The notes below the pieces were generated by a model. The model ran no database searches and was not told where the DNA came from. It saw only the letters and a program-made list of their open reading frames with translations. 64,000 bases of DNA from a phage: assembly GCA_019338205.1 (NCBI GenBank), contig GCA_019338205.1_4761.1; one strand, given 5' to 3'. Of this stretch, positions 27 to 44,053 are shown one piece after another (the first letter of the stretch is position 1; every line of letters begins with the position of its first letter). Position numbers and translations under genes: made by a program.

Positions 27-55
27 TTGACAATAAGAAATGGGAGTAGTAAAAT
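27..55 (+). promoter_or_regulatory. sigma70-type early promoter with embedded stem-loop (PeSL-like)
   Basis: TTGACA 27-32, 17-nt spacer, TAAAAT 50-55; inverted repeat GGGAGTA 42-48 / TACTCCC 55-61 spans the -10. Confidence 0.55.
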
Positions 56-86
56 ACTCCCATCTAATCAAGAAGGAGAATCAACA

Positions 87-359
87 ATGCGTAAGATGTT
101 TAAATCCGGTGTGGCCTATGTTTTTAAATCTGAGCAAGCACGTAAAGACTTCCTAGAGGATGACTACGAAGGATTGAAAGATACCTACGAAGTCATCAAG
201 AATGGGTTTACTGTTCTTAAAGTGTCACCTATTGGTTATGTAAGTGAAATCTCGGTTGATGGGAAAACATATACCGCTAAAGACTTTGATCCGCGTTGGG
301 AATTTATGCTTCTTCCGTGTGACCGCATTCTGTTTCGTGCTGTTCAATTAGTGAAATGA
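87..359 (+). CDS. hypothetical protein, repeat-domain family member A1 (GFxVLKV...DG.xYT motif)
   Basis: ATG at 87 preceded by AAGGAGAATCAA leader; track ORF 27..359 trimmed to first ATG; paralogous to 374..934, 998..2176, 2231..2725. Confidence 0.65.
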   Translation: MRKMFKSGVAYVFKSEQARKDFLEDDYEGLKDTYEVIKNGFTVLKVSPIGYVSEISVDGKTYTAKDFDPRWEFMLLPCDRILFRAVQLVK

Positions 360-373
360 TAGAGGATTATATT

Positions 374-934
374 ATGGTACAGAAAACATACAAAGTATAT
401 TCGGTTAAGTCACCCAATGACGCTGTTTTTGAACGAGGTCGTTACTATACTTTCCGTAGTGCAGAAACAGTCGCAGAATTTATCAAACGATGTCCGCAAC
501 ATAATAAGTTCTTGTATGACGTGCTTTGTAACGGCTTTAAAGTTCTCACTGTTGATGCGATGGGGCGTGTGTATCTGGTAGAAACTCATGAGTATGAAGG
601 TGCATCTGTTCTGATTGCTGCAAACGAGCGAAAATACTTTAAACGCATCACTAAAAAGCAGTTTGAAGAAATGAAACCAATTAAGAAAGAAGAATCTCTG
701 GAAGATCTGATTAACTTGTTTGCGAAGTCTTCTTTGGTATCATTGACGCTGGAAGATTTTAGCTTTGATAATCAGCTATACTTTAAAAATGCCGATGACT
801 TGAAAGATTTTCTGATTGAGAATAAACCTAAGCTAGAAACCTATATCAAAGGTGAGATTAAGCGCATGGAACATCAAGCAAAATATAGCGCAGATAAAGT
901 AGCTGAACTGAAAGAGATCCAAAGGTCACTTTAA
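374..934 (+). CDS. hypothetical protein, repeat-domain family A2 (domain ends NERKYFKRI, Lys/Glu-rich C-terminal tail)
   Basis: ATG 374 after GAGGATTATATT leader; shares NERKYFKRI and GFKVL motifs with 998..2176. Confidence 0.65.
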   Translation: MVQKTYKVYSVKSPNDAVFERGRYYTFRSAETVAEFIKRCPQHNKFLYDVLCNGFKVLTVDAMGRVYLVETHEYEGASVLIAANERKYFKRITKKQFEEMKPIKKEESLEDLINLFAKSSLVSLTLEDFSFDNQLYFKNADDLKDFLIENKPKLETYIKGEIKRMEHQAKYSADKVAELKEIQRSL

Positions 935-937
935 CGC

Positions 938-966
938 TTGACATGATGAAACGGGAGTAGTAAGAT
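938..966 (+). promoter_or_regulatory. PeSL-like early promoter
   Basis: TTGACA 938-943, TAAGAT 961-966, GGGAGTA/TACTCCC inverted repeat around the -10. Confidence 0.55.
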
Positions 967-997
967 ACTCCCATCTAAACAACGAGAGGATTATATT

Positions 998-2176
998 ATG
1001 GCTAAATTCTTTGAAGGGCATTACTACGCATTCCGTGAAGGCGGTAAAGATGAGTTTCTAGACTTTTCTCGCTATTCAATTACTCTGACCGATACTTCGC
1101 GCCGTGGTCATATTCGGGTTGCTGAAATTGTAGAAAAGGGCTTTAAAGTATTAGAAAAAGATGACCACGGTCATGTTGTTACTATTGAAGCTGGAGATGT
1201 AGTTTATTCCGCTGAGGATATCGTTTATTATTGGGCTACTATGATTATGCACAATGAGCGCAAATACTTTAAACGCATCTCAAAAGAGGCATACGAAGCG
1301 ATGAACAAGAAAGAGGATGCAATGCCGACTTACTTTGAAAAAGGTAAATGTTATTCGTTTACCCCGGAAGGTTTGCAAGAATTTAAGCGATTCTGGGGAG
1401 AGCATGATCCAGAGCACAAAGAAGCCATGAAACTTGTTGATTTTGTCGAATATGGCTTTTTAGTTGAAGAAGAATTGCACGGATCGGCTACCATGATCAC
1501 CGCGAAAGGTGAAACTGTTAAGGCGGATCGTTTTTGTGACCAATGGAATTGCTTGTTTGACGGTAGCGAATTTGAATACTTCGCGGAAATCACGCGAGTT
1601 GAATATGTCCGTATGCAAGAGCGTGGTCAGAGATTTAAAGTAGGCGAACGATACAAGCCAAATCCACATAATTTGCCTCATTGGTTTAATACTGAAACCG
1701 TATCCAGTCATGTTATTGAAATTATTAAAACGCTGGAACATGGATTTAAGGTAACTAAAGTAGATTCTTTCGGAAGTGTTGACGCTGTTGAAGTTGATGG
1801 TGTAGAATATACTCCTAAATCTTTCGGGCTTTGCTGGTATCACCTGATCAGCAATGATGAACGTTATTACTTTGTTGAACTGCCATCTGAACCGGAAGAA
1901 GCACTAGAAGATCATGATCATCTGTCTGAACTGGTTAAGCTGTTTGGTGATCTGCCGGATGGTGTAGGGGTGGCGGTAATGGGTGAAGGTGCTGTTATCC
2001 GAAACCTGAAAGACTTTAAAAAGTTCTTGATTGACATGCTGCCTAAACTTGATGATAATCTCGATAAAGATATTCAGAATCGCAAAGAAATTGTTAAAGA
2101 TACTGAAAAAGAGATCGAAGAGATTCGAGCAATTCGCCAGAAGGTGAAAGCAGTAAAGAAAAAAGTTAGTTCTTGA
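998..2176 (+). CDS. hypothetical protein with three tandem copies of the family repeat domain plus coiled-coil tail
   Basis: 392 aa; internal repeats ending NERKYFKRI / NDERYYFVEL; GFKVLEKDDHG, GFKVTKVDSFG motifs; GAGGATTATATTATG leader. Confidence 0.7.
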   Translation: MAKFFEGHYYAFREGGKDEFLDFSRYSITLTDTSRRGHIRVAEIVEKGFKVLEKDDHGHVVTIEAGDVVYSAEDIVYYWATMIMHNERKYFKRISKEAYEAMNKKEDAMPTYFEKGKCYSFTPEGLQEFKRFWGEHDPEHKEAMKLVDFVEYGFLVEEELHGSATMITAKGETVKADRFCDQWNCLFDGSEFEYFAEITRVEYVRMQERGQRFKVGERYKPNPHNLPHWFNTETVSSHVIEIIKTLEHGFKVTKVDSFGSVDAVEVDGVEYTPKSFGLCWYHLISNDERYYFVELPSEPEEALEDHDHLSELVKLFGDLPDGVGVAVMGEGAVIRNLKDFKKFLIDMLPKLDDNLDKDIQNRKEIVKDTEKEIEEIRAIRQKVKAVKKKVSS

Positions 2177-2200
2177 CATGCGAAGGGAGTATGCTATAAT
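2173..2200 (+). promoter_or_regulatory. PeSL-like early promoter
   Basis: TTGACA 2173-2178, 16-nt spacer, TATAAT 2195-2200, flanked by GGGAGTA/TACTCCC. Confidence 0.6.
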
Positions 2201-2230
2201 ACTCCCACTTAACAACGAGAGGATTATATT

Positions 2231-2725
2231 ATGTGGGTACAAGATGTTTGGTATACTGTAACTAAAGAAAACCTTGACGCATTCAGCGACCAATCTTGCG
2301 CTAATAGCTCAATTGCTGATATTCTTGAAGATGTGTTTGGTGGTGTAGATAAAATTCGTTTTAAAGTTGTTGTTAATTCTATGGGGTGTGTAAAAGACCT
2401 ATATACCGATGATAAAGACCTTGATCTTAAACTTCATCTTCGTATTGATAATGCAAGTCTAGGTTATTGGTTTGAAGATAACGAGTATGAATACTTCACA
2501 CCAGCAATTAAAGTTTTTGCAACTAAACTGGAAGCTGTACTAAATCTCCGACCAATTAATGTTGACGGTTACATTATCAAAAATATTCAGGAGTGGGATT
2601 CATATCTAGATCAGATTATCCGAAATAGTAAGCAGGAAGCCGCTAATAAGAAGCGACAAGAGATCAAACAACTGAAAGCTGAACTGGAAGCGGCGGAAAA
2701 AGAATTAGCAGAACTGGTAAAATAA
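2231..2725 (+). CDS. hypothetical protein, repeat-domain family A4 with coiled-coil C-terminus
   Basis: 164 aa; GAGGATTATATTATG leader; C-terminal KQLKAELEAAEKELAELVK. Confidence 0.65.
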   Translation: MWVQDVWYTVTKENLDAFSDQSCANSSIADILEDVFGGVDKIRFKVVVNSMGCVKDLYTDDKDLDLKLHLRIDNASLGYWFEDNEYEYFTPAIKVFATKLEAVLNLRPINVDGYIIKNIQEWDSYLDQIIRNSKQEAANKKRQEIKQLKAELEAAEKELAELVK

Positions 2726-2733
2726 CTATCAAC

Positions 2734-2758
2734 GAGCGGGAGAAATCCCGCTTTTTCA
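2734..2758 (+). terminator. rho-independent terminator-like hairpin
   Basis: GAGCGGGA-GAAA-TCCCGCT stem-loop followed by TTTTTC. Confidence 0.55.
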
Positions 2759-2769
2759 TAGGTGATACA

Positions 2770-4632: not shown

Positions 4633-4637
4633 TTTTC

Positions 4638-4669
4638 AGCCGATCCGAAAGGGTCGGCTTTTTCGTTTT
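4638..4669 (+). terminator. rho-independent terminator
   Basis: AGCCGATCCGAAAGGGTCGGCT hairpin followed by TTTTTCGTTTT directly after the nrdD stop. Confidence 0.7.
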
Positions 4670-4675
4670 GGGGTG

Positions 4676-4703
4676 TTGACAACCTGATTAGCTAATGTAT
4701 AAT
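4676..4703 (+). promoter_or_regulatory. sigma70-type early promoter
   Basis: TTGACA 4676-4681, 16-nt spacer, TATAAT 4698-4703. Confidence 0.6.
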
Positions 4704-4732
4704 GCTCACATCGAAAACAACGAGAGGACAAC

Positions 4733-5823: not shown

Positions 5824-5852
5824 TTGACGGGGATCGCGAGATCCCCTATACT
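5824..5852 (+). promoter_or_regulatory. PeSL-like early promoter
   Basis: TTGACG 5824-5829, palindrome GGGGATC-GCGA-GATCCCC in the spacer, TATACT 5847-5852. Confidence 0.55.
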
Positions 5853-5894
5853 ATATTCATCAAGACGAGATACAACTTTACAGGAGAATCAAAT

Positions 5895-8868: not shown

Positions 8869-9134
8869 TCGAGATATACGGTATACCGAAAGAGGCTTAT
8901 CATTGTTATGGTTGTATTAGTGCAATGAAGCTACTGGATGATCTGGGTATTCCGTATACACTTAAACCAGTATTCAAGCCGGTCGGGGTTGACATTATTC
9001 CCGACCGTGATATGATTGAAGAACTGGCGGGGAGGCTAAACTCAAAGAGCCTCCGGTTTGTATACCCCCAGATATTCATTGACAACGAGCACATTGGAGG
9101 CTATAAAGAACTGAGGGCGATTTATGATTATTGA
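8865..9134 (+). CDS. glutaredoxin/NrdH-like redoxin
   Basis: 89 aa; CxxC (HCYGC) near the N-terminus; sits between nrdG and gp55 where T4-type phages carry a glutaredoxin. Confidence 0.6.
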   Translation: MIEIYGIPKEAYHCYGCISAMKLLDDLGIPYTLKPVFKPVGVDIIPDRDMIEELAGRLNSKSLRFVYPQIFIDNEHIGGYKELRAIYDY

Positions 9135-13256: not shown

Positions 13257-13285
13257 TTGACGCGGGGAGAAATCCCCGTTATACT
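13257..13285 (+). promoter_or_regulatory. PeSL-like early promoter
   Basis: TTGACG 13257-13262, palindrome CGGGGA-GAAA-TCCCCG in the spacer, TATACT about 13280-13285. Confidence 0.55.
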
Positions 13286-13310
13286 CTCTAAAAATTGATG
13301 GGAGGTTATT

Positions 13311-14683: not shown

Positions 14684-16346
14684 AACCTTGCGCTATCAAA
14701 ATATAATGAGCGTTGGTGCTGAACCTGTAGAGATTCAGCTAGACGGATTCAAAAAGACACTAATCACTGGCGTTAACGGTGCTGGTAAATCAACAATGAT
14801 CGAGGCGCTTTGCTTTGTGTTGTTCGGTAAACCGTTTCGTAGTATCAAGAAAGGCCAATTGATTAACAGCGTCAACAAAAAGAAACTGTTAGTCGAAGTC
14901 TGGTTTGAACTGGACGGGAAAGAGTTTTATATCAAACGTGGTCAAAAGCCGGAAGTATTCGAAGTGCATCGCGACGGTCAAAAGATCGACGAGAGCGCAA
15001 GCACCAAAGACTTTCAGGAATATTTTGAAGGTATCATAGGCATGAACCTAGCCAGCTTCAAACAGATCGTTGTTTTAGGCACTGCTGGTTATGTTCCGTT
15101 TATGAGTCTTCCGGCAGCGGGTCGCCGTAAACTGGTCGAGGATTTGCTTGATATTGCTACGCTAGGCGAAATGGATAAACTGAATAAAGCGTATGTGCGC
15201 GAGATTACCCAGAATATCCAAATGCAGGAAATGAAAGCTAATCACGTTCAGCAACAAATCAACACTCATAAAAAGTACATAGAAGACGCTAGCAAGGCGA
15301 GTGCCGAGAATCTCCAGCGTTTACAGAATATGTATGATAAAGAGGTGGAATCGGCTAAAGCATTTAAAGCCGAAGAAACTCGCTTGACCGATGAGCTATT
15401 GGCTGTTGTTATGCCGGAAGATCCTAGCGCGGCATTGGCTAAAATTAATACGGCTATCGCACAGATTGGTGCGCAGATCCAGAACTTTGACCGTGTTATT
15501 CATATGCATGAGAAAGGAGGGATCTGTCCTACGTGCACACAACCGATCATTCAGGGTAATGATCAAGCGGTGCGCGAGCAAAAAGCACAAGCAGAACATA
15601 AGCTGTCTCTGATTGACGAGAAGCGCGTAGAATACGCAGAGAAAGCCAATTCTTTCCAGACAGCACAAACTAAGGTCTTGGAAATTAAACGCGCTATAGA
15701 GTCACAGAGAGCTAATTTAACGGCATCTGTAGGTCGGGCTAAACAGATCCAGAAAGCAATTCAGGAATTACAAAAAGAAAGGGTTGACAATTCCGAAGAA
15801 CTTGCTAAACTGGAACACGAACTGGTAGAGATCACTAATGAAAAATCAAAACTAGTTCTTGAAAAATATCACCGTGGATTTGTAACAGAAATGTTGAAGG
15901 ATTCCGGTGTTAAGGCGTCTATCGTCAAGAAATATATTCCATATTTCAATGATCGGATTGCGTATTATCTTGATATCATGGAAGCGGATTATATCTTTAC
16001 GCTAGATGAAGAGTTTAACGAAACAATCAAATCACGGGGGCGTGAATCGTTTTCGTATACATCGTTCAGTCAAGGCGAAAAGGCACGTATTGACCTTGCG
16101 ATGCTCTTTACATGGCGTGATGTTGCTGGTAAAGTATCTGGTACTAATATTTCTTTGTTGGTACTCGACGAAATTTATGATGGGGCTACTGACGTTCAGG
16201 GCGTAAAAGCACTTGATTCCATCATTGACAAGTTAGATGATAACGTGTATATTATCAGCCATCGTGACCATAACCCTGATGATTTTAGCCGTCATCTCAA
16301 GATGGTTAAACGTGGGCGATTCACTGAAATGAATGTTAACATTTGA
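14664..16346 (+). CDS. 46: recombination endonuclease subunit gp46 (Rad50/SbcC-like ATPase)
   Basis: Walker A GVNGAGKST, coiled-coil middle, C-terminal LLVLDE signature; matches remembered T4 gp46; ATG 14664. Confidence 0.92.
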   Translation: MAKLNFKTLRYQNIMSVGAEPVEIQLDGFKKTLITGVNGAGKSTMIEALCFVLFGKPFRSIKKGQLINSVNKKKLLVEVWFELDGKEFYIKRGQKPEVFEVHRDGQKIDESASTKDFQEYFEGIIGMNLASFKQIVVLGTAGYVPFMSLPAAGRRKLVEDLLDIATLGEMDKLNKAYVREITQNIQMQEMKANHVQQQINTHKKYIEDASKASAENLQRLQNMYDKEVESAKAFKAEETRLTDELLAVVMPEDPSAALAKINTAIAQIGAQIQNFDRVIHMHEKGGICPTCTQPIIQGNDQAVREQKAQAEHKLSLIDEKRVEYAEKANSFQTAQTKVLEIKRAIESQRANLTASVGRAKQIQKAIQELQKERVDNSEELAKLEHELVEITNEKSKLVLEKYHRGFVTEMLKDSGVKASIVKKYIPYFNDRIAYYLDIMEADYIFTLDEEFNETIKSRGRESFSYTSFSQGEKARIDLAMLFTWRDVAGKVSGTNISLLVLDEIYDGATDVQGVKALDSIIDKLDDNVYIISHRDHNPDDFSRHLKMVKRGRFTEMNVNI

Positions 16347-16563
16347 CAGAGTAACGCAGCCGGAGTTAGAATTGTATACCTTAATCAATCTATATTCCGG
16401 TGAAGAATATGTAGTTAGTATGGGGGATATGAAAAACAGCATATACAGCGATGCAGACATAACAAAAATGTTGTCTTGTCGTCATCATGAGTTTATGCTG
16501 GTCCCCAACTTTGATAAACTCGATTACCCTGATGCTGGGGTTGCAACAAACTTTAGAACGTGA
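16333..16563 (+). CDS. hypothetical protein
   Basis: 76-aa ORF overlapping the gp46 end; start uncertain. Confidence 0.4.
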   Translation: MLTFDRVTQPELELYTLINLYSGEEYVVSMGDMKNSIYSDADITKMLSCRHHEFMLVPNFDKLDYPDAGVATNFRT

Positions 16564-17383: not shown

Positions 17384-18070
17384 ATGAAACTGACTAAAGA
17401 AACCATTGCTACCCTGAAAAACTTTTCCGCTATTAACCCAGGTATCATCCTGAAAAAAGGAAACGTCCTGATCACCAAAAACATGACAAACGTTGTATAT
17501 GGTGAAGCGACTCTGAATCAAGAACTGGAACACGAAATTGGGATCTATGATCTTAACTCTTTCTTGGGTATTCTGAATCTGGTAGGCGATGAAGCAGATA
17601 TTACGGTTGATGACCGCACCGGAAACATTCGTGTGTCTAATGATCGTCTGAAAATTAATTATCCTGGTGCTAGTGCTGCCGCCATCGTATCACCGAAAGG
17701 CCGAGTTACTCCACCTGCAAGCGATGTAGATTACGAACTGAGCAACGACGATCTGAAACAGCTTATGAAAATGAGCAATCAGCTTAAAGTGGATCGCCTT
17801 GAATTTCTTCCGATTGATGGTCGTCTGATGATCAAAGGCTGGGAAGAGATTGACAAAAATAATCCGAATGAGATGTTTTGTCTTGATATGGGCGAATATA
17901 CCGGAACCGCAGACTTCCATTTCTTTATTCGTAAAGATAACATGAAACTGGTTGCTACTGACTTCGGCGATTACAAACTTAGCTTCACTCGCCGTAAGGC
18001 TGTATGGCTGGCAAGTGAAACCGTATCTTATATGATCGCGTGTGACCTTGACTCCAGCTACACCGACTAA
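17384..18070 (+). CDS. 45: sliding clamp gp45
   Basis: MKLTKETIATLKNFSAINPGIILK...IYDLNSFLGIL closely matches remembered T4 gp45; 228 aa. Confidence 0.93.
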   Translation: MKLTKETIATLKNFSAINPGIILKKGNVLITKNMTNVVYGEATLNQELEHEIGIYDLNSFLGILNLVGDEADITVDDRTGNIRVSNDRLKINYPGASAAAIVSPKGRVTPPASDVDYELSNDDLKQLMKMSNQLKVDRLEFLPIDGRLMIKGWEEIDKNNPNEMFCLDMGEYTGTADFHFFIRKDNMKLVATDFGDYKLSFTRRKAVWLASETVSYMIACDLDSSYTD

Positions 18071-18082
18071 TATAATGATTGT

Positions 18083-18108
18083 GGGGAGTGTAAATACTCC
18101 CCGTTTTA
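18083..18108 (+). promoter_or_regulatory. PeSL-like stem-loop with T-run (possible terminator/promoter element)
   Basis: GGGGAGT-GTAAAT-ACTCCCC followed by GTTTTA; TATAAT at 18071-18076 just upstream. Confidence 0.4.
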
Positions 18109-18135
18109 ATGATGTAATTTGTGAGAGGTGATTAT

Positions 18136-20052: not shown

Positions 20053-20073
20053 GATACTGATGGGATAGGGGTA

Positions 20074-20102
20074 TTGACAAACTAAGTCGATTCCCCTATA
20101 AT
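20074..20102 (+). promoter_or_regulatory. sigma70-type early promoter with the -35 inside a stem-loop
   Basis: TTGACA 20074-20079, 17-nt spacer, TATAAT 20097-20102; TAGGGG...CCCCTA inverted repeat flanks the -35. Confidence 0.55.
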
Positions 20103-20134
20103 GAGTGTCTTTCGTAAGTGAAGGAGTTTATATT

Positions 20135-22813
20135 ATGTATTTTCTGTCATGTGAGCGAGTAGGTGATAAGATCTACGAGCGTTATATTGATTATGCTGGA
20201 CAAGAACAAGAGCGTTACGTTGAATATACGCCAACATTATTTCATCATGCCGCGCCTGGTATGGTTACGAATTATAAAGATATCTATGGCAAGCCTTGCA
20301 TTGCTAAAAAATTCCCATCTATGAACGAGGCCAACAAATGGCGTAAAAAGATGGGAGAAATGGGGCAAGAGGCACTAGGGATGGATGATTTTATCATCTC
20401 CTATCTGTCCGATACATATAAAGGCGAGATTCGATATGACCGAAATAAAATCCGTGTAGCGTGGGTTGATATTGAGGTCACTGCCCCAGAATTTCCTAAA
20501 CCAGAAGAAGCGAAATATCCTATCGATGCAATTACGCATTATGATTCCGTACATGATCGTTTCTTTGTATTTGATTTGAAAGGAAAAAACGGTGAAATCT
20601 GGGAAGCAAGCAAGTCTATTCTTCGACCTGATATTGTGGAGCGCGTTGTTTATAACGTTTATGACACAGAAGATGAATTGCTGTTAGAATACATCCGATT
20701 CTTTGAGGAAAACCGACCCGTTGGTTTCACTGGCTGGAACACAGAAACATTCGATATTCCATATATCATTAAGCGTATCAGCAATAAGTTTGGAAGTCGA
20801 ACGGCAAACCGTTTAAGCCCGTGCGGTAAGATTAAATCCCGAATCTCACAGGATGATTTTGGCAACGAGCGTGAAGCATTTACGATCATGGGGATCGAAA
20901 GCCTTGATTATATTGACCTGTACAAGAAATTTAGCTTTACGACTCAACCAACATATGCGTTAGATTATGTTGCTGAATATGAGACAGGAATCGGTAAGGT
21001 TGATTATGATGGTCCGTTAAAGAAATTGCGTGATGACAATCATCAACTTTACATCGATTATAACATCGGCGACGTTGATCGTGTGCTGGCGATTGATAAA
21101 AAGCGTGGATTTATCGATCTTGTGTATAGTCTATGTTTCTATGCAAAGATTAAATTTAACCATGTTTATAACCCGATGAAAGTATGGGATGCTATCATCT
21201 TCGGATCTCTGAAAGCTGAGGGTAAAGTAGTACCGGAAAATAAGATACAGCCTAAGCAGACTTATCCGGGCGCATTCGTAAAAGAACCTGTGCCGAATGC
21301 TTACCGTTGGATGATGAGCTTTGACTTAACAAGTCTGTACCCATCTATTATTCGACAGGTTAATATTTCTCCTGAAACAATCGCTGGATCTTTTGATGCT
21401 GCACCGATGCACGAGTATATCAATAAAACTGCACCACGTCCGAGTGATGAGTATTCTTGCTCGCCTAACGGATGGATGTATAGAAAAGATATTCATGGTA
21501 TCGTACCGATTGAGATTAAAAAGGTATTCGATCAGCGTAAGCAGTACAAAAACATGATGTTGGCATGTGATCGCAATGCTGAACTATGTAAAGCGATTCT
21601 ACACGATGAAAATCATGTTTATGGGGGAACCATTAGCTATAGCGTTGAAGTGCGTCACGACTTTGATGAAGCGTTTAAATCGATGCTTTCTGAATTAAGT
21701 AAAGATGCCTTAGAGAAATTGCTGGAAGAATGTAAAGACGAGTCGATCTTGTGCAATACAAACCAGCTTTCTCGAAAAGTTTTGATTAACTCCCTTTATG
21801 GTGCGTTGGGGAATCCTAAATTCCGTTTTTATGATCTCCGTAACGCTAGTGCGATCACCTTGTTTGGTCAGCTTGCAATTCAGTGGATTGAGCGTAAGAT
21901 TAACGAATACTTAAACGAGCTTTGCGGAACAACCGATTTTGCATATGTTCGTTATTGTGATACTGACTCCGTTTATGTGCTGGTTAACAATGTTGTTGAT
22001 AAGGTTGGCGGGGAAGACCGTTTCGACGATACCGAAAAACTTGTTGACTTCCTTGATAATTTCGGTAAACATCGAATGGAACCGATTATCGACAAAGGAT
22101 ATCGCGAGTTATGCGAGTACATGAACAACTACGAGCACTTGATGTTTATGGACCGCGAGGCAATTGCTGGTCCTCCGTTGAAATCTGCGGGTATCGGTGG
22201 ATTCTGGACTGGTAAAAAGCGTTATGCTCTTAATGTTTGGGATATGGAAGGAACGCGCTTTGCTGAACCTAAGCTAAAAATCATGGGCTTGGAAACGCAA
22301 CGTAGCTCTACACCTAAAGCATGTCAGAAATCACTGAAAGAATGTATTCGCCGTATGTTGCAGGAAGGGGAAGAATCGCTACAGAAATACTACGGTATTT
22401 TTGAGCAAGAATTTAGAAAACTTGACTATCTTGAGGTTGCTGCGGTATCATCTGCAAACAACCTACAGAAATACAGCGATTCAAACGGGTATCCGATTAA
22501 GGGTTGTCCGTATGCGGTTAAGAGTGTATTGTGTTATAATCGTAATGCTCGAAAATTCGGACTAGATCCGATTCGTGAAGGCGAGAAGGTTATGATTGTA
22601 CCGCTTAAAGATCGAAATCCGTTTGGAGAAATCTGTTTTGGTTGGTTGTCTGGTACTCGTATTCCTCCAGAAATTGAATCAGAGGTGTTGAAGTGGTTGG
22701 ACTGGCCTTTGTTGTTTAATAAGACTTTCGTCAAACCACTGGAGAACATTACCACGGCTGCAAAGCTGCAATATGAAAAGGTGGCATCGCTCACGGACCT
22801 GTTTGACATTTAA
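20135..22813 (+). CDS. 43: DNA polymerase gp43 (family B)
   Basis: ATG 20135 after GAAGGAG; exonuclease and polymerase motifs (FDIETT-like DIEVT, SLYPSII, YCDTDS); matches remembered T4 gp43. Confidence 0.95.
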   Translation: MYFLSCERVGDKIYERYIDYAGQEQERYVEYTPTLFHHAAPGMVTNYKDIYGKPCIAKKFPSMNEANKWRKKMGEMGQEALGMDDFIISYLSDTYKGEIRYDRNKIRVAWVDIEVTAPEFPKPEEAKYPIDAITHYDSVHDRFFVFDLKGKNGEIWEASKSILRPDIVERVVYNVYDTEDELLLEYIRFFEENRPVGFTGWNTETFDIPYIIKRISNKFGSRTANRLSPCGKIKSRISQDDFGNEREAFTIMGIESLDYIDLYKKFSFTTQPTYALDYVAEYETGIGKVDYDGPLKKLRDDNHQLYIDYNIGDVDRVLAIDKKRGFIDLVYSLCFYAKIKFNHVYNPMKVWDAIIFGSLKAEGKVVPENKIQPKQTYPGAFVKEPVPNAYRWMMSFDLTSLYPSIIRQVNISPETIAGSFDAAPMHEYINKTAPRPSDEYSCSPNGWMYRKDIHGIVPIEIKKVFDQRKQYKNMMLACDRNAELCKAILHDENHVYGGTISYSVEVRHDFDEAFKSMLSELSKDALEKLLEECKDESILCNTNQLSRKVLINSLYGALGNPKFRFYDLRNASAITLFGQLAIQWIERKINEYLNELCGTTDFAYVRYCDTDSVYVLVNNVVDKVGGEDRFDDTEKLVDFLDNFGKHRMEPIIDKGYRELCEYMNNYEHLMFMDREAIAGPPLKSAGIGGFWTGKKRYALNVWDMEGTRFAEPKLKIMGLETQRSSTPKACQKSLKECIRRMLQEGEESLQKYYGIFEQEFRKLDYLEVAAVSSANNLQKYSDSNGYPIKGCPYAVKSVLCYNRNARKFGLDPIREGEKVMIVPLKDRNPFGEICFGWLSGTRIPPEIESEVLKWLDWPLLFNKTFVKPLENITTAAKLQYEKVASLTDLFDI

Positions 22814-22830
22814 GATAAAGTGTGTATAAT
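22803..22830 (+). promoter_or_regulatory. sigma70-type early promoter overlapping the gp43 3' end
   Basis: TTGACA 22803-22808, 16-nt spacer, TATAAT 22825-22830. Confidence 0.55.
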
Positions 22831-22874
22831 GGCGGGTGTTGGGTTACGATACCCACCAATGTGAGAAATATATT

Positions 22875-23074: not shown

Positions 23075-24145
23075 ATGTCTGTACTGGAAAAACTGAAAAA
23101 GAACTCTACCCTGAAAACTACTGCGGTACTGTCTAAATCCAGCTTCTTTAACGAAAAAACAAATACTCGCACTAAGATCCCGATGCTGAATATTGCGTTT
23201 TCAGGTGATCTTAAAAAGGGCTTTCAATCTGGTCTGATTTTCTTTGCTGGTCCGTCTAAGCACTTTAAATCAAACATGGGATTAACTTGTGTTAGTGCAT
23301 ACATGAAACAGAATCCTGATGCGGCGTGTTTGTTCTTTGATTCTGAGTTCGGTATTACACCCGCTTATCTTGAATCTATGGGTGTAGATCCTGATCGCGT
23401 GGTGCATGTTCCAATCAAGAACATCGAAGAACTTAAATTTGAAATCATGAACCAGCTTGAGCAAATTACCCGTGAAGATAAAGTGATCATCTTTATTGAC
23501 TCAATCGGTAACTTAGCAAGTAAAAAAGAAGTTGAAGACGCGATTAATGAGAAATCCGCACAGGATATGACGCGAGCGAAAGCACTTAAAGGCTTGTTCC
23601 GTATGGTTACGCCGTATCTGACTATGAATGATATCCCGTGCATCGCTATTAACCACACTTACGAAACGCAAGAAATGTTTAGTAAGACCGTTATGTCCGG
23701 CGGTACGGGCGCGATGTATTCAGCCAATGAAGTTTTCATTATTGGTCGTCGTCAGCAGAAAGAAGGAACCGAAATTACTGGTTATGATTTTATCCTGAAT
23801 GCGGAAAAATCACGAACCGTTAAAGAAAAATCGAAGTTCCCGATTAGCGTAACATTTAGCGGTGGCATCGATCCTTATTCTGGCTTGCTGGAATTGGCTG
23901 TAGAGTTAGGTTGGGTAGTGAAACCGTCAAACGGCTGGTATTCTCGTTCCATCCTGAATACTGAGACCGGAGAGATGGAAACCGAAGAACGCAAGTTCCG
24001 TGCTAAAGAAACCAATAGCATTGAGTTCTGGAAACCACTTCTGACAAACGATAAGTTTAACGAAGCAATCAACGATCATTATAAGCTGGGGCAAGTGATC
24101 AGCGACGAAGCAGTTGACAAAGAAATCGAAGATATGTTAGCATAA
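23075..24145 (+). CDS. uvsX: RecA-like recombinase UvsX
   Basis: Walker A GPSKHFKS-like loop, FDSEFG, and overall match to remembered T4 UvsX. Confidence 0.93.
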   Translation: MSVLEKLKKNSTLKTTAVLSKSSFFNEKTNTRTKIPMLNIAFSGDLKKGFQSGLIFFAGPSKHFKSNMGLTCVSAYMKQNPDAACLFFDSEFGITPAYLESMGVDPDRVVHVPIKNIEELKFEIMNQLEQITREDKVIIFIDSIGNLASKKEVEDAINEKSAQDMTRAKALKGLFRMVTPYLTMNDIPCIAINHTYETQEMFSKTVMSGGTGAMYSANEVFIIGRRQQKEGTEITGYDFILNAEKSRTVKEKSKFPISVTFSGGIDPYSGLLELAVELGWVVKPSNGWYSRSILNTETGEMETEERKFRAKETNSIEFWKPLLTNDKFNEAINDHYKLGQVISDEAVDKEIEDMLA

Positions 24146-29123: not shown

Positions 29124-29152
29124 TTGACACTACTCTATAATGGTTTTATTAT
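29124..29152 (+). promoter_or_regulatory. sigma70-type promoter
   Basis: TTGACA 29124-29129, 17-nt spacer, TATTAT 29147-29152. Confidence 0.45.
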
Positions 29153-29153
29153 G

Positions 29154-29185
29154 CCTCCCGTCGAAAGATTGGAGGCTTTTTTATT
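29154..29185 (+). promoter_or_regulatory. leader hairpin that sequesters the RBS, terminator-like
   Basis: GCCTCC...GGAGGC stem whose 3' arm is the Shine-Dalgarno, followed by TTTTTTATT and then ATG 29186. Confidence 0.45.
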
Positions 29186-29692: not shown

Positions 29693-29721
29693 TTGACAGC
29701 ACAAACCAGATAGACAATAAT
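29693..29721 (+). promoter_or_regulatory. sigma70-type early promoter with conserved ATAATACAC.CATACCAA leader
   Basis: TTGACA 29693-29698, -10 around 29715-29721; leader almost identical to the one at 43039-43075. Confidence 0.5.
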
Positions 29722-35582: not shown

Positions 35583-35630
35583 TTGACATACAAGGGAGAT
35601 TCTCTATAATGGGAGTCTCCCTTTTCTTTT
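35583..35630 (+). promoter_or_regulatory. PeSL-like early promoter with terminator-like T-run
   Basis: TTGACA 35583-35588, TATAAT 35605-35610 inside the loop of GGGAGA...TCTCCC, followed by TTTTCTTTT. Confidence 0.55.
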
Positions 35631-35644
35631 ATGAGGATTTAATA

Positions 35645-35951: not shown

Positions 35952-35980
35952 TTGACACTGGACCGGGGATATATCATAAT
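35952..35980 (+). promoter_or_regulatory. PeSL-like early promoter
   Basis: TTGACA 35952-35957, CATAAT 35975-35980 inside the GGGGA...TCCCC inverted repeat. Confidence 0.55.
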
Positions 35981-36010
35981 GTCCCCATCGAAAACAAAAG
36001 GTTGACTTAT

Positions 36011-38919: not shown

Positions 38920-38988
38920 AAAATAATTCTGGTATAATGATGTGAATCGGGCGGCGATAGTCGCCCAACTAATAGAGGAATGAATACT

Positions 38989-39981: not shown

Positions 39982-39995
39982 CAGAGGAATTAATT

Positions 39996-40313
39996 ATGGT
40001 TGATATGAAAGTTACTTGCGAAAGTGCACATGTTGAAGTAGAACAGGTAGCATATCCATCTCGACGCGTTACGGTGACTTTAGACGATGTGGATCTGGCT
40101 AATAATGTTACCGTTGAAGATATCGTTAATGAGTATGATCATAGCGAACTGCTAGATGCAATCCCTGAACATGTTGTTATTCAGCACGTAGTAAGCAATA
40201 ATGATCCATCGACTTTCATTAAAGAATATGGCGCTGATGAAATGCTCGATGAAATTGGTGAAAAGATTGTTATTGCATGGCTTGAAAACAACGGCTATAC
40301 TGTAGAACAATAA
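39996..40313 (+). CDS. hypothetical acidic protein
   Basis: 105 aa, strongly acidic; AGAGGAATTAATT leader. Confidence 0.6.
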   Translation: MVDMKVTCESAHVEVEQVAYPSRRVTVTLDDVDLANNVTVEDIVNEYDHSELLDAIPEHVVIQHVVSNNDPSTFIKEYGADEMLDEIGEKIVIAWLENNGYTVEQ

Positions 40314-40318
40314 TAAAC

Positions 40319-40343
40319 ATAGGCCGCGCAAAGCGGCCTTTCT
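40319..40343 (+). terminator. rho-independent terminator
   Basis: AGGCCGC-GCAAA-GCGGCCT hairpin followed by TTCTT. Confidence 0.6.
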
Positions 40344-40358
40344 TAGAGGGAATACATT

Positions 40359-40652
40359 ATGACGGTCACGATTATTACCAAATACGACGACGAAAATGTG
40401 ATTTACGGTGATGTGGTTGTTGTTCACGGTCGTAGCATGAAAGTTACTGGTAATTGTAAAGATGGTGCTATTATTTGCGGTGAATTGGTGAGAACCGTCA
40501 ATCCTATCACCGACGAACAAAAGCGAGTCATTATCAGAAAACTTAAAGACAGTGGATATTGTAACGTTGTGGTGATTCAGGAAAAATTTGAAGTAGGCCA
40601 CTTATACACAAATCAGAAAACAATTCCGGTATCAATGGTTAAAGGCGGTTAA
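40359..40652 (+). CDS. hypothetical protein
   Basis: 97 aa; GAGGGAATACATT leader. Confidence 0.6.
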   Translation: MTVTIITKYDDENVIYGDVVVVHGRSMKVTGNCKDGAIICGELVRTVNPITDEQKRVIIRKLKDSGYCNVVVIQEKFEVGHLYTNQKTIPVSMVKGG

Positions 40653-40654
40653 TA

Positions 40655-41017
40655 ATGCTAGGTCATTCTAAAATAGAAGATTGCTCATTCAGAGCAATGA
40701 AAGATGATTTTTCGGTCCTGTACGCGTCTATCCGAGAGTTGTTTGTAGATTTTAAGCAATTCAGAGAATACAAAGGCGTTAAGATGCGGGAGTGGGTATT
40801 CTGGCCTTTCTATATCATTACTCTGTTTTCTATGGTATTTTGTTTTGTCGGGATCACTATCGCTAGCTTTGTTACTTGCGTTTTCTTGATTATCCGGTGT
40901 ATCATGTTTGCTTTGATTGCTGCCCCGTTTATTGTGTCAATCCTTCCGTTAAAATGGCTATTGGATTGGGCTGATAAATCTGATAAAGTAAAGAATGTGA
41001 TTTGTAAGCGTGTATGA
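40655..41017 (+). CDS. predicted integral membrane protein
   Basis: 120 aa with two or three hydrophobic helices (FYIITLFSMVFCFVGITIASFV, IMFALIAAPFIVSILPL); adjacent to gp52. Confidence 0.6.
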   Translation: MLGHSKIEDCSFRAMKDDFSVLYASIRELFVDFKQFREYKGVKMREWVFWPFYIITLFSMVFCFVGITIASFVTCVFLIIRCIMFALIAAPFIVSILPLKWLLDWADKSDKVKNVICKRV

Positions 41018-41024
41018 GGTGAAG

Positions 41025-42371
41025 ATGAATAAATCAGTTACTTACCGCAGCCTTGAAAGCATTGTACATAATGAAGCTAAGGAATATGCGATCTATTCCG
41101 CCGAGGAACGCGGTATTCCTCAATTAGTAGATGGTCTTAAACCAGTGCAACGCTTTGTTATGGAATGCGCTTTGCAAAAGAGTAAAGGCGACCGTAAGAA
41201 ATTCCGTAAGATGGCAGATATTGGATCTGGTGTTGCTGAGTTGGGTTATCACCACGGGGAAACTAATGCCGTAGAAGCCGGATCACTCATGGCGAATACA
41301 TGGAGCAATAATACTCCACTGCTTGACGGTCAAGGTAACTTCGGATCGCGTTTAGTCCAGAAAGCGGGTGCGGCACGTTATATTTTTGCTCGTGTGCATG
41401 AAAACTTCTTTAAAATCTATAAAGATATGAATTGCGCACCTAAGCACGAAGATCTGGAACACATCCCGCCAGCGTTCTACTTGCCAGTTGTGCCAATGGT
41501 ATTGGCTAATGGTATTAGTGGTATTGCTACAGGGTATAAAACTGACATTTTACCGCATTCACTGGAAAGCCTCATTGAATGCACAGAGCTAGCACTTGCC
41601 GGAAAACTGGATAAAGAACCTAGTGTTCAATTCCCGAAATTCACGGGTAAAGTTATCCCGCGAGATGATCGCGATGGTGTGATTCTTGAGGGTACATATG
41701 AACTAAACGGCAAGACTAAGCTGACAATATCAGAAGTTCCTTATAAGTTCGACCGTGAAGAATATGTAGCGGTACTGGATGCACTGGAAGAAAAAGATCT
41801 GATTGTATCGTATAATGACCGTTGCTCTAAGGATGGATTCAGATTTGAAGTAACACTGAAACGCGATTATTTCAAAAGCGAAGATGAATCCGCTCGACAT
41901 GAGCAAATCATGAAGGATTTTAAACTAACACAGTTAGTAGCCCAGAATATCGTAGTGGTTAATGAACGTGGTTTAGTAGAAGTATTCGAGAAAGCGAGCG
42001 ATCTGATCCGTCGATTCGTCGAAATCCGATTAGGGTATGTCGATAAGCGCATTGAATTGATGCAAGCGGAAACGCTGGAAGCATACAATTATGCAATGGC
42101 TAAAGCCGAATTTATCGATCGCGTAATTAAGGGCGAAATCGAGCTACAGGGAAAGAAAAAGGCCGAGGTAATGCAATCCATCAATGGACATGAAAAACTG
42201 CGTCCATACGCCGATAAGCTAGTTTCTATGCCATTGTATAGCGTTACTCAAGAAGAGTATGATCGACTGGTCAAAGATGCCGAGAAACATCATAGTGAAT
42301 ATGAGTATTGGACAAAGACGACCGCAATGAAGGAATATAAGAAAGATCTTAAAGAACTTAAGAAGGGTTGA
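41025..42371 (+). CDS. 52: DNA topoisomerase II medium subunit gp52 (GyrA-like)
   Basis: PVQRFV, GYHHGE, DGQGNFGS, RYIFAR with active-site Tyr region; matches remembered T4 gp52. Confidence 0.93.
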   Translation: MNKSVTYRSLESIVHNEAKEYAIYSAEERGIPQLVDGLKPVQRFVMECALQKSKGDRKKFRKMADIGSGVAELGYHHGETNAVEAGSLMANTWSNNTPLLDGQGNFGSRLVQKAGAARYIFARVHENFFKIYKDMNCAPKHEDLEHIPPAFYLPVVPMVLANGISGIATGYKTDILPHSLESLIECTELALAGKLDKEPSVQFPKFTGKVIPRDDRDGVILEGTYELNGKTKLTISEVPYKFDREEYVAVLDALEEKDLIVSYNDRCSKDGFRFEVTLKRDYFKSEDESARHEQIMKDFKLTQLVAQNIVVVNERGLVEVFEKASDLIRRFVEIRLGYVDKRIELMQAETLEAYNYAMAKAEFIDRVIKGEIELQGKKKAEVMQSINGHEKLRPYADKLVSMPLYSVTQEEYDRLVKDAEKHHSEYEYWTKTTAMKEYKKDLKELKKG

Positions 42372-42577
42372 TTATGAAAGAATATCCAGAAGGCGGTTAT
42401 GTGGCTTTCGTGTACAACAATAAAAAGATTGTGCCAATGGTCGTTGAGACTATGGAAGAAGCCAACCGGATCACTATTGAATCTCTGAATAAGTTAGCAG
42501 AGATAACAAACACACCAGAACACAGAGCAACGATAGACTATTTGATGAAAGAATTTTTGGAGGGAAAGTATGACTGA
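42368..42577 (+). CDS. hypothetical protein
   Basis: 69 aa; ATGA overlap with gp52. Confidence 0.55.
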   Translation: MIMKEYPEGGYVAFVYNNKKIVPMVVETMEEANRITIESLNKLAEITNTPEHRATIDYLMKEFLEGKYD

Positions 42578-42965
42578 ACGACGCATTACTTCAAATGGTT
42601 TGGGTACTCATCATGCCTGGATGGTTGACCCAGACAAAAATCCTTATAAACTTTACGATACAACGATTAAACCGTGGAATAATGGCGTATGGAAAACACC
42701 ACCCACAACAGCACCTATTATGACTGATCCGCAACCGATTAGCCCTATGGCGGAACCAGTACAGATTAAGCCGTTACCTTACCAGATAACAACGAATAGC
42801 ATCGCCAACAAACAAGAAAATGATATTGATATGATCTACGAGATGATTAAACTTTGGCGTGATGTTTATCTGGGCGTTCTCTGCAACACAGATAAAAGTG
42901 CACATGCGGCAGCGGTACTGGCATCTCATGCGGTAGACGAAGCCAAAAAGAAATTTAGTAAGTAA
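42570..42965 (+). CDS. hypothetical protein
   Basis: 131 aa. Confidence 0.55.
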   Translation: MTERRITSNGLGTHHAWMVDPDKNPYKLYDTTIKPWNNGVWKTPPTTAPIMTDPQPISPMAEPVQIKPLPYQITTNSIANKQENDIDMIYEMIKLWRDVYLGVLCNTDKSAHAAAVLASHAVDEAKKKFSK

Positions 42966-42974
42966 CTGATTATT

Positions 42975-43006
42975 AAGCCGATCCTTGTGGTCGGCTTTTT
43001 TATTTT
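42975..43006 (+). terminator. rho-independent terminator
   Basis: AAGCCGATCCTTGTGGTCGGCTT hairpin followed by TTTTTTATTTT. Confidence 0.75.
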
Positions 43007-43015
43007 AAAAAGTTG

Positions 43016-43044
43016 TTGACTTCACGAATCCAGCCTCGCATAAT
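43016..43044 (+). promoter_or_regulatory. sigma70-type early promoter with conserved ATAATACAC.CATACCAA leader
   Basis: TTGACT 43016-43021, 17-nt spacer, CATAAT 43039-43044. Confidence 0.55.
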
Positions 43045-43075
43045 ACACACATACCAAACAAAAGGAGAATCAAAG

Positions 43076-43348
43076 ATGAGCAACGAAAACAGCAAAGTGT
43101 TAGCAATTGCAAATAAAGTAGGTTACTGGAAATGCTGGGATGATATGGAGAAATTAGGCGGTCGCTATCTCGATAACTTAGAGTTGCATTATTGCCAAGC
43201 GCGTAATGCAGAAGTTGCGGGAGTAGCAATCGAAGATATTCCGTCTAAGGTCTTCGGATTCTCTAAAGATGATACTTTAGAATATGTTTTCAAGGCTGTT
43301 ATGGATCAAGCATGGGAAGACGCAGAGACACGCGCTCTTGATTGGTGA
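43076..43348 (+). CDS. hypothetical protein
   Basis: ATG 43076 after AAAGGAGAATCAAAG; 90 aa. Confidence 0.6.
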   Translation: MSNENSKVLAIANKVGYWKCWDDMEKLGGRYLDNLELHYCQARNAEVAGVAIEDIPSKVFGFSKDDTLEYVFKAVMDQAWEDAETRALDW

Positions 43349-43352
43349 TAAT

Positions 43353-43514
43353 ATGAACTGGTATAAAATTTGGAAAAATCAGGTGGAGGCTTATCTAGGG
43401 TATAAGCCCACCGACGAAGAATTACTTGAAGCAATGTACGAAGACGGACTAAATCCGAAAGTAGCCGCGCAAGAATACGCGGAATGGGTGAAGGTCGAAA
43501 ATAATTTAAAATAG
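43353..43514 (+). CDS. small hypothetical protein (53 aa)
   Basis: track ORF 43284..43514 trimmed to ATG 43353. Confidence 0.45.
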   Translation: MNWYKIWKNQVEAYLGYKPTDEELLEAMYEDGLNPKVAAQEYAEWVKVENNLK

Positions 43515-43517
43515 TTG

Positions 43518-43546
43518 TTGACGTAAAGAAACGGGAGTAGTAATAT
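43518..43546 (+). promoter_or_regulatory. PeSL-like early promoter
   Basis: TTGACG 43518-43523, TAATAT 43541-43546, GGGAGTA/TACTCCC inverted repeat. Confidence 0.55.
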
Positions 43547-43578
43547 ACTCCCATACCAAACGAAAGAAGGAGAATCAC

Positions 43579-43791
43579 ATGAAATCTAGTGAGCAAGTAG
43601 TGACTGAATTTATGAGCTACGAAGGAAACCGCATCTTTGGACGTTCTCAAGTTCGCGAGATCGTAGAAGAAGTTGCGGGAGAGTTTGCGGAATCTGGTCA
43701 CGTTATCACGCAAGAACGTAAAGAAGAAGCAGTAAGCCAGATCATGGCTATGCAGAAAATGCGTATTAATGCACGAGCGGGTAAAAATTAA
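43579..43791 (+). CDS. hypothetical protein
   Basis: 70 aa; GAAGGAGAATCAC leader. Confidence 0.6.
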   Translation: MKSSEQVVTEFMSYEGNRIFGRSQVREIVEEVAGEFAESGHVITQERKEEAVSQIMAMQKMRINARAGKN

Positions 43792-43801
43792 AAAATAGTT
43801 G

Positions 43802-43830
43802 TTGACAGGGGATCGGCGATCCCCTATACT
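43802..43830 (+). promoter_or_regulatory. PeSL-like early promoter
   Basis: TTGACA 43802-43807, palindrome GGGGATC-GGC-GATCCCC in the spacer, TATACT 43825-43830. Confidence 0.55.
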
Positions 43831-43861
43831 AAACTCATCAAGACAACGAAGGAGAATCAAA

Positions 43862-44017
43862 ATGAAACATACTCACAAATTAATGGTTAAATTTTAAGGC
43901 GCTAAAGGATATGAACGTTACGGTGTATTCTTCTCTGAGGATGATGCATGGAATGCTGGTCTGGCAACGTTCGCCGAGCACAACAACATTGAAGACTTTA
44001 CTGTAGAAGAAATTTAA
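43862..44017 (+). pseudogene. small ORF interrupted by an in-frame TAA after codon 11 (nonsense allele or readthrough candidate)
   Basis: ATG 43862 with AAGGAGAATCAAA RBS; MKHTHKLMVKF, then TAA at about 43895-43897, then 39 further in-frame sense codons to a stop at about 44015-44017. Confidence 0.4.
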
Positions 44018-44024
44018 AAAGTAG

Positions 44025-44053
44025 TTGACACCGGATTAAGGGAGTAGTAAGAT
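44025..44053 (+). promoter_or_regulatory. PeSL-like early promoter
   Basis: TTGACA 44025-44030, TAAGAT 44048-44053, GGGAGTA/TACTCCC inverted repeat. Confidence 0.55.

Follow-up and report, generated by a model that had tools for sequence, protein, structure and literature searches.

What are the ten promoters with built-in inverted repeats in a 64,000-nt stretch of phage DNA (contig GCA_019338205.1_4761.1 of NCBI GenBank assembly GCA_019338205.1; hereafter the window), and what do the repeats do? The original prediction, made from the letters alone, described a family of sigma70-like early promoters and likened them to the promoter-early stem-loops (PeSLs) of RB49-group phages. We conclude, with a probability of about 0.88, that the ten sites are PeSLs of RB49/phi1-type T4-like phages. 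The PeSL family was published in 2010 from the same genus and is thus already known.

The likeness begins with the genome itself, as the window is a segment of a Krischvirus genome (RB49/phi1 group, T4-like coliphages). Both its first 6 kb and the part at 35-47.5 kb matched 59 phage records, all of them Krischvirus, with 90-99% identity. The best match was vB_EcoM_G2248 (97.9%), and phi1 and GEC-3S stood at about 96%. Positions 1-38783 were collinear with positions 1-38778 of phi1 (reverse strand) at 96.7% identity and without a large indel.

Every one of the ten predicted coordinates (27, 938, 2173, 5824, 13257, 35583, 35952, 43518, 43802 and 44025) held a promoter close to the sigma70 consensus in which an inverted repeat is embedded. 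Elements with the hairpin over the -10 are referred to as class A, and elements in which it fills the -35 to -10 spacer as class B. The ten elements are as follows (SD, Shine-Dalgarno sequence; ORF, open reading frame).

27..86, + strand: PeSL, class A; -35 TTGACA 27-32, -10 TAAAAT 50-55, hairpin ATGGGAGTA/TACTCCCAT 40-63, SD AAGGAGAATCA, ATG 87.
938..997, + strand: PeSL, class A; TTGACA, N17, TAAGAT, hairpin GGGAGTA/TACTCCC 953-972; drives a frd.2/goF-like gene, ATG 998.
2173..2230, + strand: PeSL, class A; TTGACA, N16, TATAAT, hairpin GGGAGTAT/ATACTCCC 2185-2206; the TGA of the upstream gene lies in the -35.
5824..5894, + strand: PeSL, class B; TTGACG, hairpin GGGGATC-GCGA-GATCCCC 5829-5846, -10 TATACT, ATG 5895.
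13257..13310, + strand: PeSL, class B; TTGACG, hairpin GCGGGGA-GAAA-TCCCCGT 13262-13279, TATACT; directly after the gp47 stop, ATG 13311.
35583..35644, + strand: PeSL; 13-bp hairpin 35592-35623 with TATAAT in the loop, then TTTTCTTTT; after the topoisomerase gene.
35952..36010, + strand: PeSL, class A-like; TTGACA, N17, CATAAT, hairpin GGGGATAT/ATGTCCCC 35965-35986 with one U.G pair, ATG 36011.
43518..43578, + strand: PeSL, class A; TTGACG, N17, TAATAT, hairpin 43533-43552.
43802..43861, + strand: PeSL, class B; TTGACA, hairpin AGGGGATC-GGC-GATCCCCT 43807-43825, TATACT; the downstream ORF has a nonsense codon.
44025..44087, + strand: PeSL, class A; TTGACA, N17, TAAGAT, hairpin 44040-44059; the element with which 43802 recombined in AV108, MIZ4, LF73P4 and FL15.

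The design proved more varied than had been predicted. The predicted TTGACA was found at six of the ten sites, and TTGACG at four (5824, 13257 and 43518 among them). Eight spacers were 17 nt long and two were 16 nt, as expected. The -10 hexamers (TAAAAT, TAAGAT, TATAAT, TATACT, CATAAT and TAATAT) all read TAnnnT or CATAAT and had at least four of six consensus matches. The placement of the -10 within the stem-loop held for seven sites; at 5824, 13257 and 43802 the hairpin lies in the spacer. Seven sites carry one of the two stems originally named, GGGAGTA-N-TACTCCC in five copies (42, 953, 2185, 43533 and 44040) and GGGGATC-N-GATCCCC in two (5829 and 43808), with 0 expected of either from 100 shuffles. 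The uniformity of the stems had nevertheless been overstated, since the remaining three sites use others: GCGGGGA/TCCCCGT at 13257, the 13-bp AAGGGAGATTCTC/GGGAGTCTCCCTT at 35583 and GGGGATAT/ATGTCCCC at 35952.

Each 49-nt element was folded as RNA, and all ten formed the expected hairpin, with energies from -11.9 to -21.3 kcal/mol and z from -2.1 to -4.5; the element at 35583 reached -21.3 kcal/mol, and that at 27 gave -13.8 kcal/mol with z -4.5. The same hairpins were weaker as DNA (-4.3 to -7.5 kcal/mol), the RNA being about twice as stable. The G-rich arm was 5′ in 10/10 hairpins, and loops were 3 to 6 nt long in the ten sites and up to about 21 nt in an additional member at 20074. A near-invariant 24-nt block, GGGAGTAGTAANATACTCCCAT, accounts for four class A copies in the window (27, 938, 43518 and 44025). 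A fifth variant with a different loop is found at 2173, and a further copy comes with the extra cassette of FL04-type relatives.

The surroundings of the promoters were also shared. The 25 nt 5′ of the -35 had an AT content of 56-80% (mean about 72%), against 59.5% for the window. The stop codon of the upstream gene lay 0-12 nt before the -35, and inside it at 2173, and the downstream ATG followed 54-71 nt after the start of the -35, preceded by the SD AGGAGAATCA or GAGGATTATATT. The use of the TGA within TTGACA as the upstream stop was seen three times, at 2173-2178, 16343-16348 and 62388-62393. The genes that end there are a frd.2-like gene, gp46 and the gene before a gene-32-like ORF, an extreme compaction of coding and promoter sequence.

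A genome-wide motif search had been proposed as a check on the prediction. In the window, TTGAC[AG]-N16/17-TAnnnT had 35 matches on the + strand and none on the - strand, and dinucleotide shuffles gave 2.7 +/- 1.6. Strong hairpins (z <= -2.4) accompanied 10 of 21 intergenic promoters and only 1 of 33 intragenic promoter-like sites, counting all TTGACN sites (Fisher p = 1.3e-4). About half of the 35 + strand sites lay inside early genes and had no hairpin, and none lay in the late tail-fibre block at 47-59 kb. The + strand excess suggests either that early promoters in sense orientation are common within genes or that the coding strand is biased. An Rfam scan of the window at the gathering score matched no family. 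The class A motif together with its -35 (a 25-base query) was found exactly in only 3 IMG/VR contigs, one of them of 150 kb. The looser pattern GGGAGTA-N4-10-TACTCCC returned unrelated contigs among the matches listed, and we estimate that a 14-base palindrome is expected by chance in that database.

These features agree with the published description of PeSLs. Arbiol et al. 2010 (PMC2839356) described PeSLs in phi1 and RB49 as repeated motifs with a sigma70-consensus promoter and, 5′ of its -35, an AT-rich tract that holds the stop codon of the upstream gene. Their stem-loop is stable, often polyG...polyC, and occupies any of five possible positions, most commonly between the -35 and -10 hexamers or overlapping the -10; the 3′ end carries an SD and a start codon (PMC2839356). 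In phi1 there are 52 PeSLs, mostly in hyperplastic regions before ORFans, and g43 and nrdD are also flanked by them (PMC2839356). For the RB49/phi1 type, Comeau et al. 2014 (PMC4122927) gave TTGACA-N17-TATAAT and a Gn-loop-Cn stem. According to Nolan et al. 2006, the RB49 early-promoter consensus agrees with the 5′ ends mapped by Desplats et al. 2002, and motA and middle promoters are lacking in RB49. Every sequence-level property by which PeSLs are recognised in PMC2839356 and PMC4122927 was found in the window: the promoter, the AT tract with its stop codon, the stem-loop, the intergenic site with SD and ATG, the preference for ORFans and the location at indel junctions. The ten hairpins take the two placements that PMC2839356 gives as the commonest. 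The likeness to RB49-group PeSLs that the original prediction had noted is thereby borne out. The GEC-3S record annotates promoters at the orthologues of 27, 2173, 4676, 5824, 13257, 20074 and 22803.

Two window elements come very close to PeSLs with published reporter results. PeSL206/205 of phi1 gave promoter activity of about 13,000 Miller units, and the GGGGATC stem-loop of PeSL211/210 cut downstream lacZ as much as rrnB T1 did (PMC2839356). The core of PeSL206/205 reads TTGACAGGGGATCACCGATCCCCTATACT and the window element at 43802 reads TTGACAGGGGATCGGCGATCCCCTATACT, the difference being the 3-nt loop only. The elements at 43802 and 5824 have TTGAC(A/G)GGGGATC-loop-GATCCCC-TATACT in common with PeSL206/205. 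The element between ORF212 and ORF210 of phi1, which we take to be PeSL211/210 of Arbiol et al., reads TTGACAGGGGATCGGTGATCCCCTTATAAT and has the same stem arms as 43802 and 5824. The tested phi1 elements thus carry TTGACAGGGGATC-NNN-GATCCCC, with arms that recur at 43802 and 5824. Class A elements are not among the reporter-tested PeSLs.

The prediction had further proposed that the elements are mobile regulatory cassettes that shuffle accessory genes, and this was supported by a breakpoint map of 34-48.5 kb against eight relatives (phi1, RB49, LF73P4, FL15, AV108, SSG23, MIZ4 and FL04). Nine gene-content events were identified, of which six abut PeSLs (binomial p ~1e-6, with PeSLs covering about 5% of the region). 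The six, by window position, are listed with the relatives that show them.

35551/35583: homing-endonuclease gene inserted immediately 5′ of PeSL 35583 (FL15, LF73P4).
35993/36186: ORF after PeSL 35952 absent, so that the PeSL drives the next gene directly (FL15).
43043/43079: extra ORF and extra class A PeSL, with the junction in the shared 5′ untranslated region (UTR) and SD (FL04, SSG23, LF73P4).
43496/43511: insertion of about 500 bp within the AT-rich tract 5′ of PeSL 43518 (six relatives).
43781/43788: ORF263.1 present 5′ of PeSL 43802 (phi1).
43801-43813/44010: ORF263 absent (AV108, MIZ4, LF73P4, FL15).

The loss of ORF263 left a chimeric 43802/44025 PeSL in AV108, MIZ4 and LF73P4. The junction of the chimera falls in the AAAAA tract in AV108 and MIZ4 and after TTGACA in LF73P4, and these two junction types imply at least two independent exchanges. 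In FL15, ORF263.1 is joined directly to a 44025-type PeSL. All four combinations of presence and absence of ORF263.1 and ORF263 occur across the window and the relatives compared. The map reproduces the model of Arbiol et al. (PMC2839356) with more genomes. In FL15, the homing-endonuclease gene of the first junction listed separates the topoisomerase large-subunit gene from PeSL 35583; an insertion of equal size occupies this junction in LF73P4, and the window has none.

The genes downstream were mostly small unknown ORFs, as had been predicted: nine of the ten have no assigned function, and one is a member of the goF/frd.2 family. Among the unknowns, the 252-aa product of 44088-44846, driven by PeSL 44025, gave a weak match to the LprI domain (lysozyme inhibitor; PF07007, E = 1.4e-5). 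In phi1 and AV108 the C-terminal part of this protein is replaced (breakpoints 44489/44828). In the phi1 ORF263 homologue at 43862-44017, which PeSL 43802 drives, codon 12 (43895-43897) is a premature TAA in place of the GAA of phi1. This cassette gene is inactivated in the window phage, and four relatives lack the gene altogether. The 90-aa product of 87-359 and the 392-aa Frd.2/GoF-like protein of 998-2176 have a common repeated domain (phrog_622, 5347, 16115), which suggests that they are paralogous modules that have spread as adjacent cassettes.

The family is larger than the ten sites originally reported. The prediction had spoken of at least ten members, and at least seven further promoter-hairpin elements were found in the window.

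4638..4732, + strand: additional member with the hairpin 5′ of the -35; terminator hairpin 4638-4659 and T-run, TTGACA-N16-TATAAT 4676-4703, ATG 4733.
18048..18135, + strand: additional member with the hairpin 3′ of the -10; TTGACT-N17-TATAAT 18048-18076, hairpin GGGGAGT-GTAAAT-ACTCCCC 18083-18102, then GTTTTAA.
20065..20134, + strand: additional member 5′ of the gp43 DNA polymerase gene; arms ATAGGGG 20065-20071 and CCCCTAT 20093-20099.
22803..22874, + strand: additional member 3′ of gp43; TTGACA-N16-TATAAT 22803-22830, hairpin 22834-22854 downstream of the -10.
29124..29185, + strand: additional member; TTGACA-N17-TATTAT, then directly the canonical terminator GCCTCCCGTC-GAAA-GATTGGAGGC 29153-29176 and T6.
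42976..43075, + strand: additional member with the hairpin upstream; terminator hairpin 42976-42996 and T-run, TTGACT-N17-CATAAT 43016-43044, shared 5′ UTR and SD, ATG 43076.
63431..63539, + strand: additional member; terminator 63431-63450 and T-run, TTGACA-N16-TATAAT 63482-63509; paralogue of the 4676 element.

A GC-rich hairpin followed immediately by a U-tract, as in a canonical terminator, was present in the members at 4638, 29153, 42976 and 63431. The GEC-3S record annotates a terminator at the 18048 element. The arms of 20065-20134 surround the -35 (20074) and extend into the -10 (TATAAT, 20097-20102), with z -2.7. In the window, the elements at 20074 and 22803 lie on either side of gp43, in keeping with PMC2839356, and nrdD lies between those at 2173 and 4676. 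A density of 17-20 elements per 64 kb fits the 52 in the 164-kb phi1 genome. The promoters at 29693, 33666 and 62388 have the hexamers of the family without a hairpin, and 29693 also has its 5′ UTR.

The 3′ arm of the 29124 terminator holds the GGAGG SD of a modB-like gene (ATG 29186). Transcripts from the 29124 promoter would start inside the 5′ arm and leave this SD free, and read-through transcripts would sequester it. The hairpin at 22831-22857, after the polymerase gene, has a C.A mismatch in the window; phi1 and GEC-3S have C-G there and a longer stem. At 45131-45160, a TTGACG after the usual AAGTTG is fused straight to the SD GAGGATTATATTATG with no -10, and looks like a truncated PeSL. 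At the same spot, phi1 has a perfect 27-bp x3 tandem repeat (AAGTACAACCGAAAATAAGTTGTTGAC).

Three other candidates were left out of the family. The site at 8989 lies inside nrdH; there, at 8980-9007, a 9-bp GC-rich stem CGGTCGGGG...CCCGACCG spans TTGACA-N16-TATGAT in the coding sequence, and it is either an internal PeSL-like element or a chance occurrence. The promoter-like site at 24114 would give a transcript that itself contains the uvsX terminator. The site at 59472 lies inside a 61-aa ORF and has reversed arm polarity; its membership is uncertain. It consists of a perfect TTGACA-N17-TATAAT at 59472-59500 with a spacer hairpin AATCCCT-GAT-AGGGATT (C-run first), upstream of a 315-aa ORF at 59620-60567.

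How such an element might work can be outlined from its layout. Early in infection, the unmodified host sigma70 RNA polymerase would start at TTGAC(A/G)-N16/17-TAnnnT, aided by the AT-rich upstream tract, and the small downstream gene would be expressed through the shared 5′ UTR and the SD (AGGAGAATCA or GAGGATTATATTATG). The Gn-loop-Cn arms occupy positions that sigma70 does not read. In class B these are spacer positions; in class A they are the last part of the spacer and the discriminator, and the AT-rich -10 doubles as the hairpin loop. Two signals thus appear to be overprinted in a minimal intergenic space.

The position of the hairpin relative to the start of transcription, taken as about 7 nt past the -10, bears on which RNA can contain it. 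Class A hairpins end 6-8 nt past the -10, and class B hairpins (5824, 13257 and 43802) end 5-6 nt before the end of the -10 hexamer. At 35583 the hairpin ends 13 nt past the -10 and the predicted start falls in its 3′ arm; in the other nine elements the whole hairpin lies at or 5′ of the predicted start. The element's own transcript therefore cannot hold a complete hairpin, and only RNA that reads through from the upstream cassette does. In this read-through RNA the hairpin would most likely attenuate or terminate transcription and cap the 3′ end. It would also insulate neighbouring cassettes and keep elongating polymerases off the next promoter. The block of about 60-100 bp (AT tract, -35, stem, -10, UTR and SD), in some 17-20 copies in the window, would offer short patches of homology at which the homology-driven recombination of the phage could delete, insert or swap cassettes of promoter and gene. 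We infer that class A hairpins attenuate transcription and that cassette recombination is passive and homologous.

Several signs point to a function at the level of RNA, among them the greater stability of the RNA hairpins and the 5′ position of the G-rich arm noted above. Sense-strand G.U pairs were found at 35583 (two), 35952 and 13257. Among orthologues, changes that keep pairing were A to G at 27, giving U.G (phi1 and GEC-3S), C to T at phi1 44025, giving G.U, and U.G versus U-A at 35952. Orthologous stems differ at only about six positions across ten relatives (96-98% identity), too little divergence for a real covariation test, and covariation among paralogues would be circular as the paralogues were chosen by their hairpins. 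The GNRA tetraloops GCGA and GAAA cap two class B stems. Of 17 elements, 12 folded more stably as the sense strand than as the antisense strand (Wilcoxon p = 0.017).

A number of observations weigh against this account. A canonical U-tract follows the hairpin only at 35583 (TTTTCTTTT); at the others, the 12 nt that follow contain 1-6 U, and so nine of the ten sites lack the GC-rich hairpin with immediate U-tract of a canonical intrinsic (Rho-independent) terminator. Only one type of stem-loop has been tested for termination, and in a reporter context (PMC2839356). Taken together, the missing U-tracts and the single tested stem type make "terminator" an extrapolation, and attenuation or 3′-end protection is the better wording. 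One orthologous change, C to A at RB49 43518, breaks a pair (G.A). The five class A copies keep the near-invariant 24-nt block while their spacers differ, which could mean sequence-specific recognition or gene conversion and not selection on structure alone. As to cassette exchange, three of the nine events lie away from PeSLs (44489/44828, 45074/45132 and 46083-46425/46738), and one of the PeSL-adjacent events is a homing-endonuclease insertion, which has its own mechanism.

The alternative that survives best is that the hairpins in read-through RNA are 3′-end protectors or processing barriers, blocking exonucleases or being cleaved by RegB or another RNase via the GGAG of the 5′ arm, and so set the half-lives of cassette mRNAs. 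We regard this as possible but doubtful. The lack of a U-tract at nine of ten hairpins favours it, and the RNA-level signs are the same as those for attenuation. The reporter result for the GGGGATC stem-loop, which lowered lacZ to the level of rrnB T1 (PMC2839356), better fits termination or attenuation, although a polar effect through stability is possible. GGAG is present in the arms of class A and 35583 and in the shared SD, and a RegB-like endoribonuclease is encoded in the genus (GEC-3S annotation); held in a stable stem, however, GGAG would be a poor target for a single-strand nuclease.

The inverted repeats might also be double-stranded DNA sites for a dimeric protein, either an early-promoter repressor or a recombination protein for cassette exchange. 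A dyad over the -10 or the spacer is a classic operator layout, and the dyads here overlap core promoter elements. The block that is invariant in the five class A copies next to a varying spacer would suit such a site, as would the unexplained early shut-off in RB49-type phages, which lack MotA and middle promoters (Nolan et al. 2006). The authors of the original PeSL study themselves speculated on a recombination protein that binds GGGG...CCCC (PMC2839356). However, one protein cannot read at least five unrelated stems with variable loop lengths and five dyad positions. The G.U pairs at 35583, 35952 and 13257 are A.C on the other strand and break the dyad symmetry, and neither the G-arm-first order in 10/10 nor the greater stability of the sense fold is expected of a symmetric duplex site. 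No candidate protein is known, and we consider this explanation unlikely. The narrower proposal that the class A block is the recognition site of a putative phage protein, which catalyses the excision and insertion of cassettes or switches promoters off, is very unlikely; if true, PeSL shuffling would be integron-like and site-specific and not passive homologous recombination.

That the hairpins are functionless and passively inherited from a few duplicated promoter units is highly improbable, for although paralogous copies closely resemble one another (five class A, three class B and the pair 4676/63482), different stems all keep pairing and the Gn...Cn polarity, hairpins are concentrated at intergenic promoters and nearly absent from intragenic look-alikes, wobble changes preserve pairing in orthologues, and a reporter effect has been published (PMC2839356).

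The reading of the ten sites as PeSLs places the window in a known context. PeSLs are among the few concrete mechanisms proposed for the shuffling of accessory genes in large lytic phages with transcription units left intact, and the window adds little beyond one more PeSL-carrying genome. What is added is an extended list of members, a breakpoint map over multiple genomes and a caveat on non-canonical termination. Eight more genomes independently support recurrent gene gain and loss at the PeSLs of 43-44.1 kb, with different crossover points. Caution is due in that most hairpins are not canonical terminators and the published "terminator" label derives from a single tested type of stem.

Compared with the PeSLs of RB49 and phi1, those of the window are the same in genus, orthologous positions, promoter consensus, AT tract, Gn-loop-Cn stem, hairpin placements, SD and association with ORFans and indels. 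Nothing differs in kind; particular to the window are its own cassettes at 43-44.1 kb, without ORF263.1 and with ORF263 inactivated. The PeSLs of T4/PST and KVP40/nt-1 (PMC4122927) likewise combine a promoter and a stem-loop at gene junctions of hyperplastic regions with differential ORFs. They differ in sequence, with TTTACW...TAYWAT joined to AGNA-loop-TCNT stems, and TTGYVH...TAWWAT to A3-4G3-loop-C3T3-4 stems (PMC4122927). Lambdoid morons (Hendrix et al. 2000, as discussed in PMC2839356) resemble PeSL cassettes in being lone accessory genes with their own promoter and terminator between resident genes. The regulatory sequences of morons do not form conserved linkers, nor is mobility ascribed to them, whereas the repeated promoter-hairpin block of the window would itself be the recombination site. 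Integron gene cassettes are also promoter-served arrays of small exchangeable genes, and circular intermediates have been reported for PeSL cassettes, as encapsidated mini-circles (PMC2839356). Unlike integron cassettes, each PeSL cassette has its own promoter, exchange is presumed to be homologous, and no integrase or attC-type site is known.

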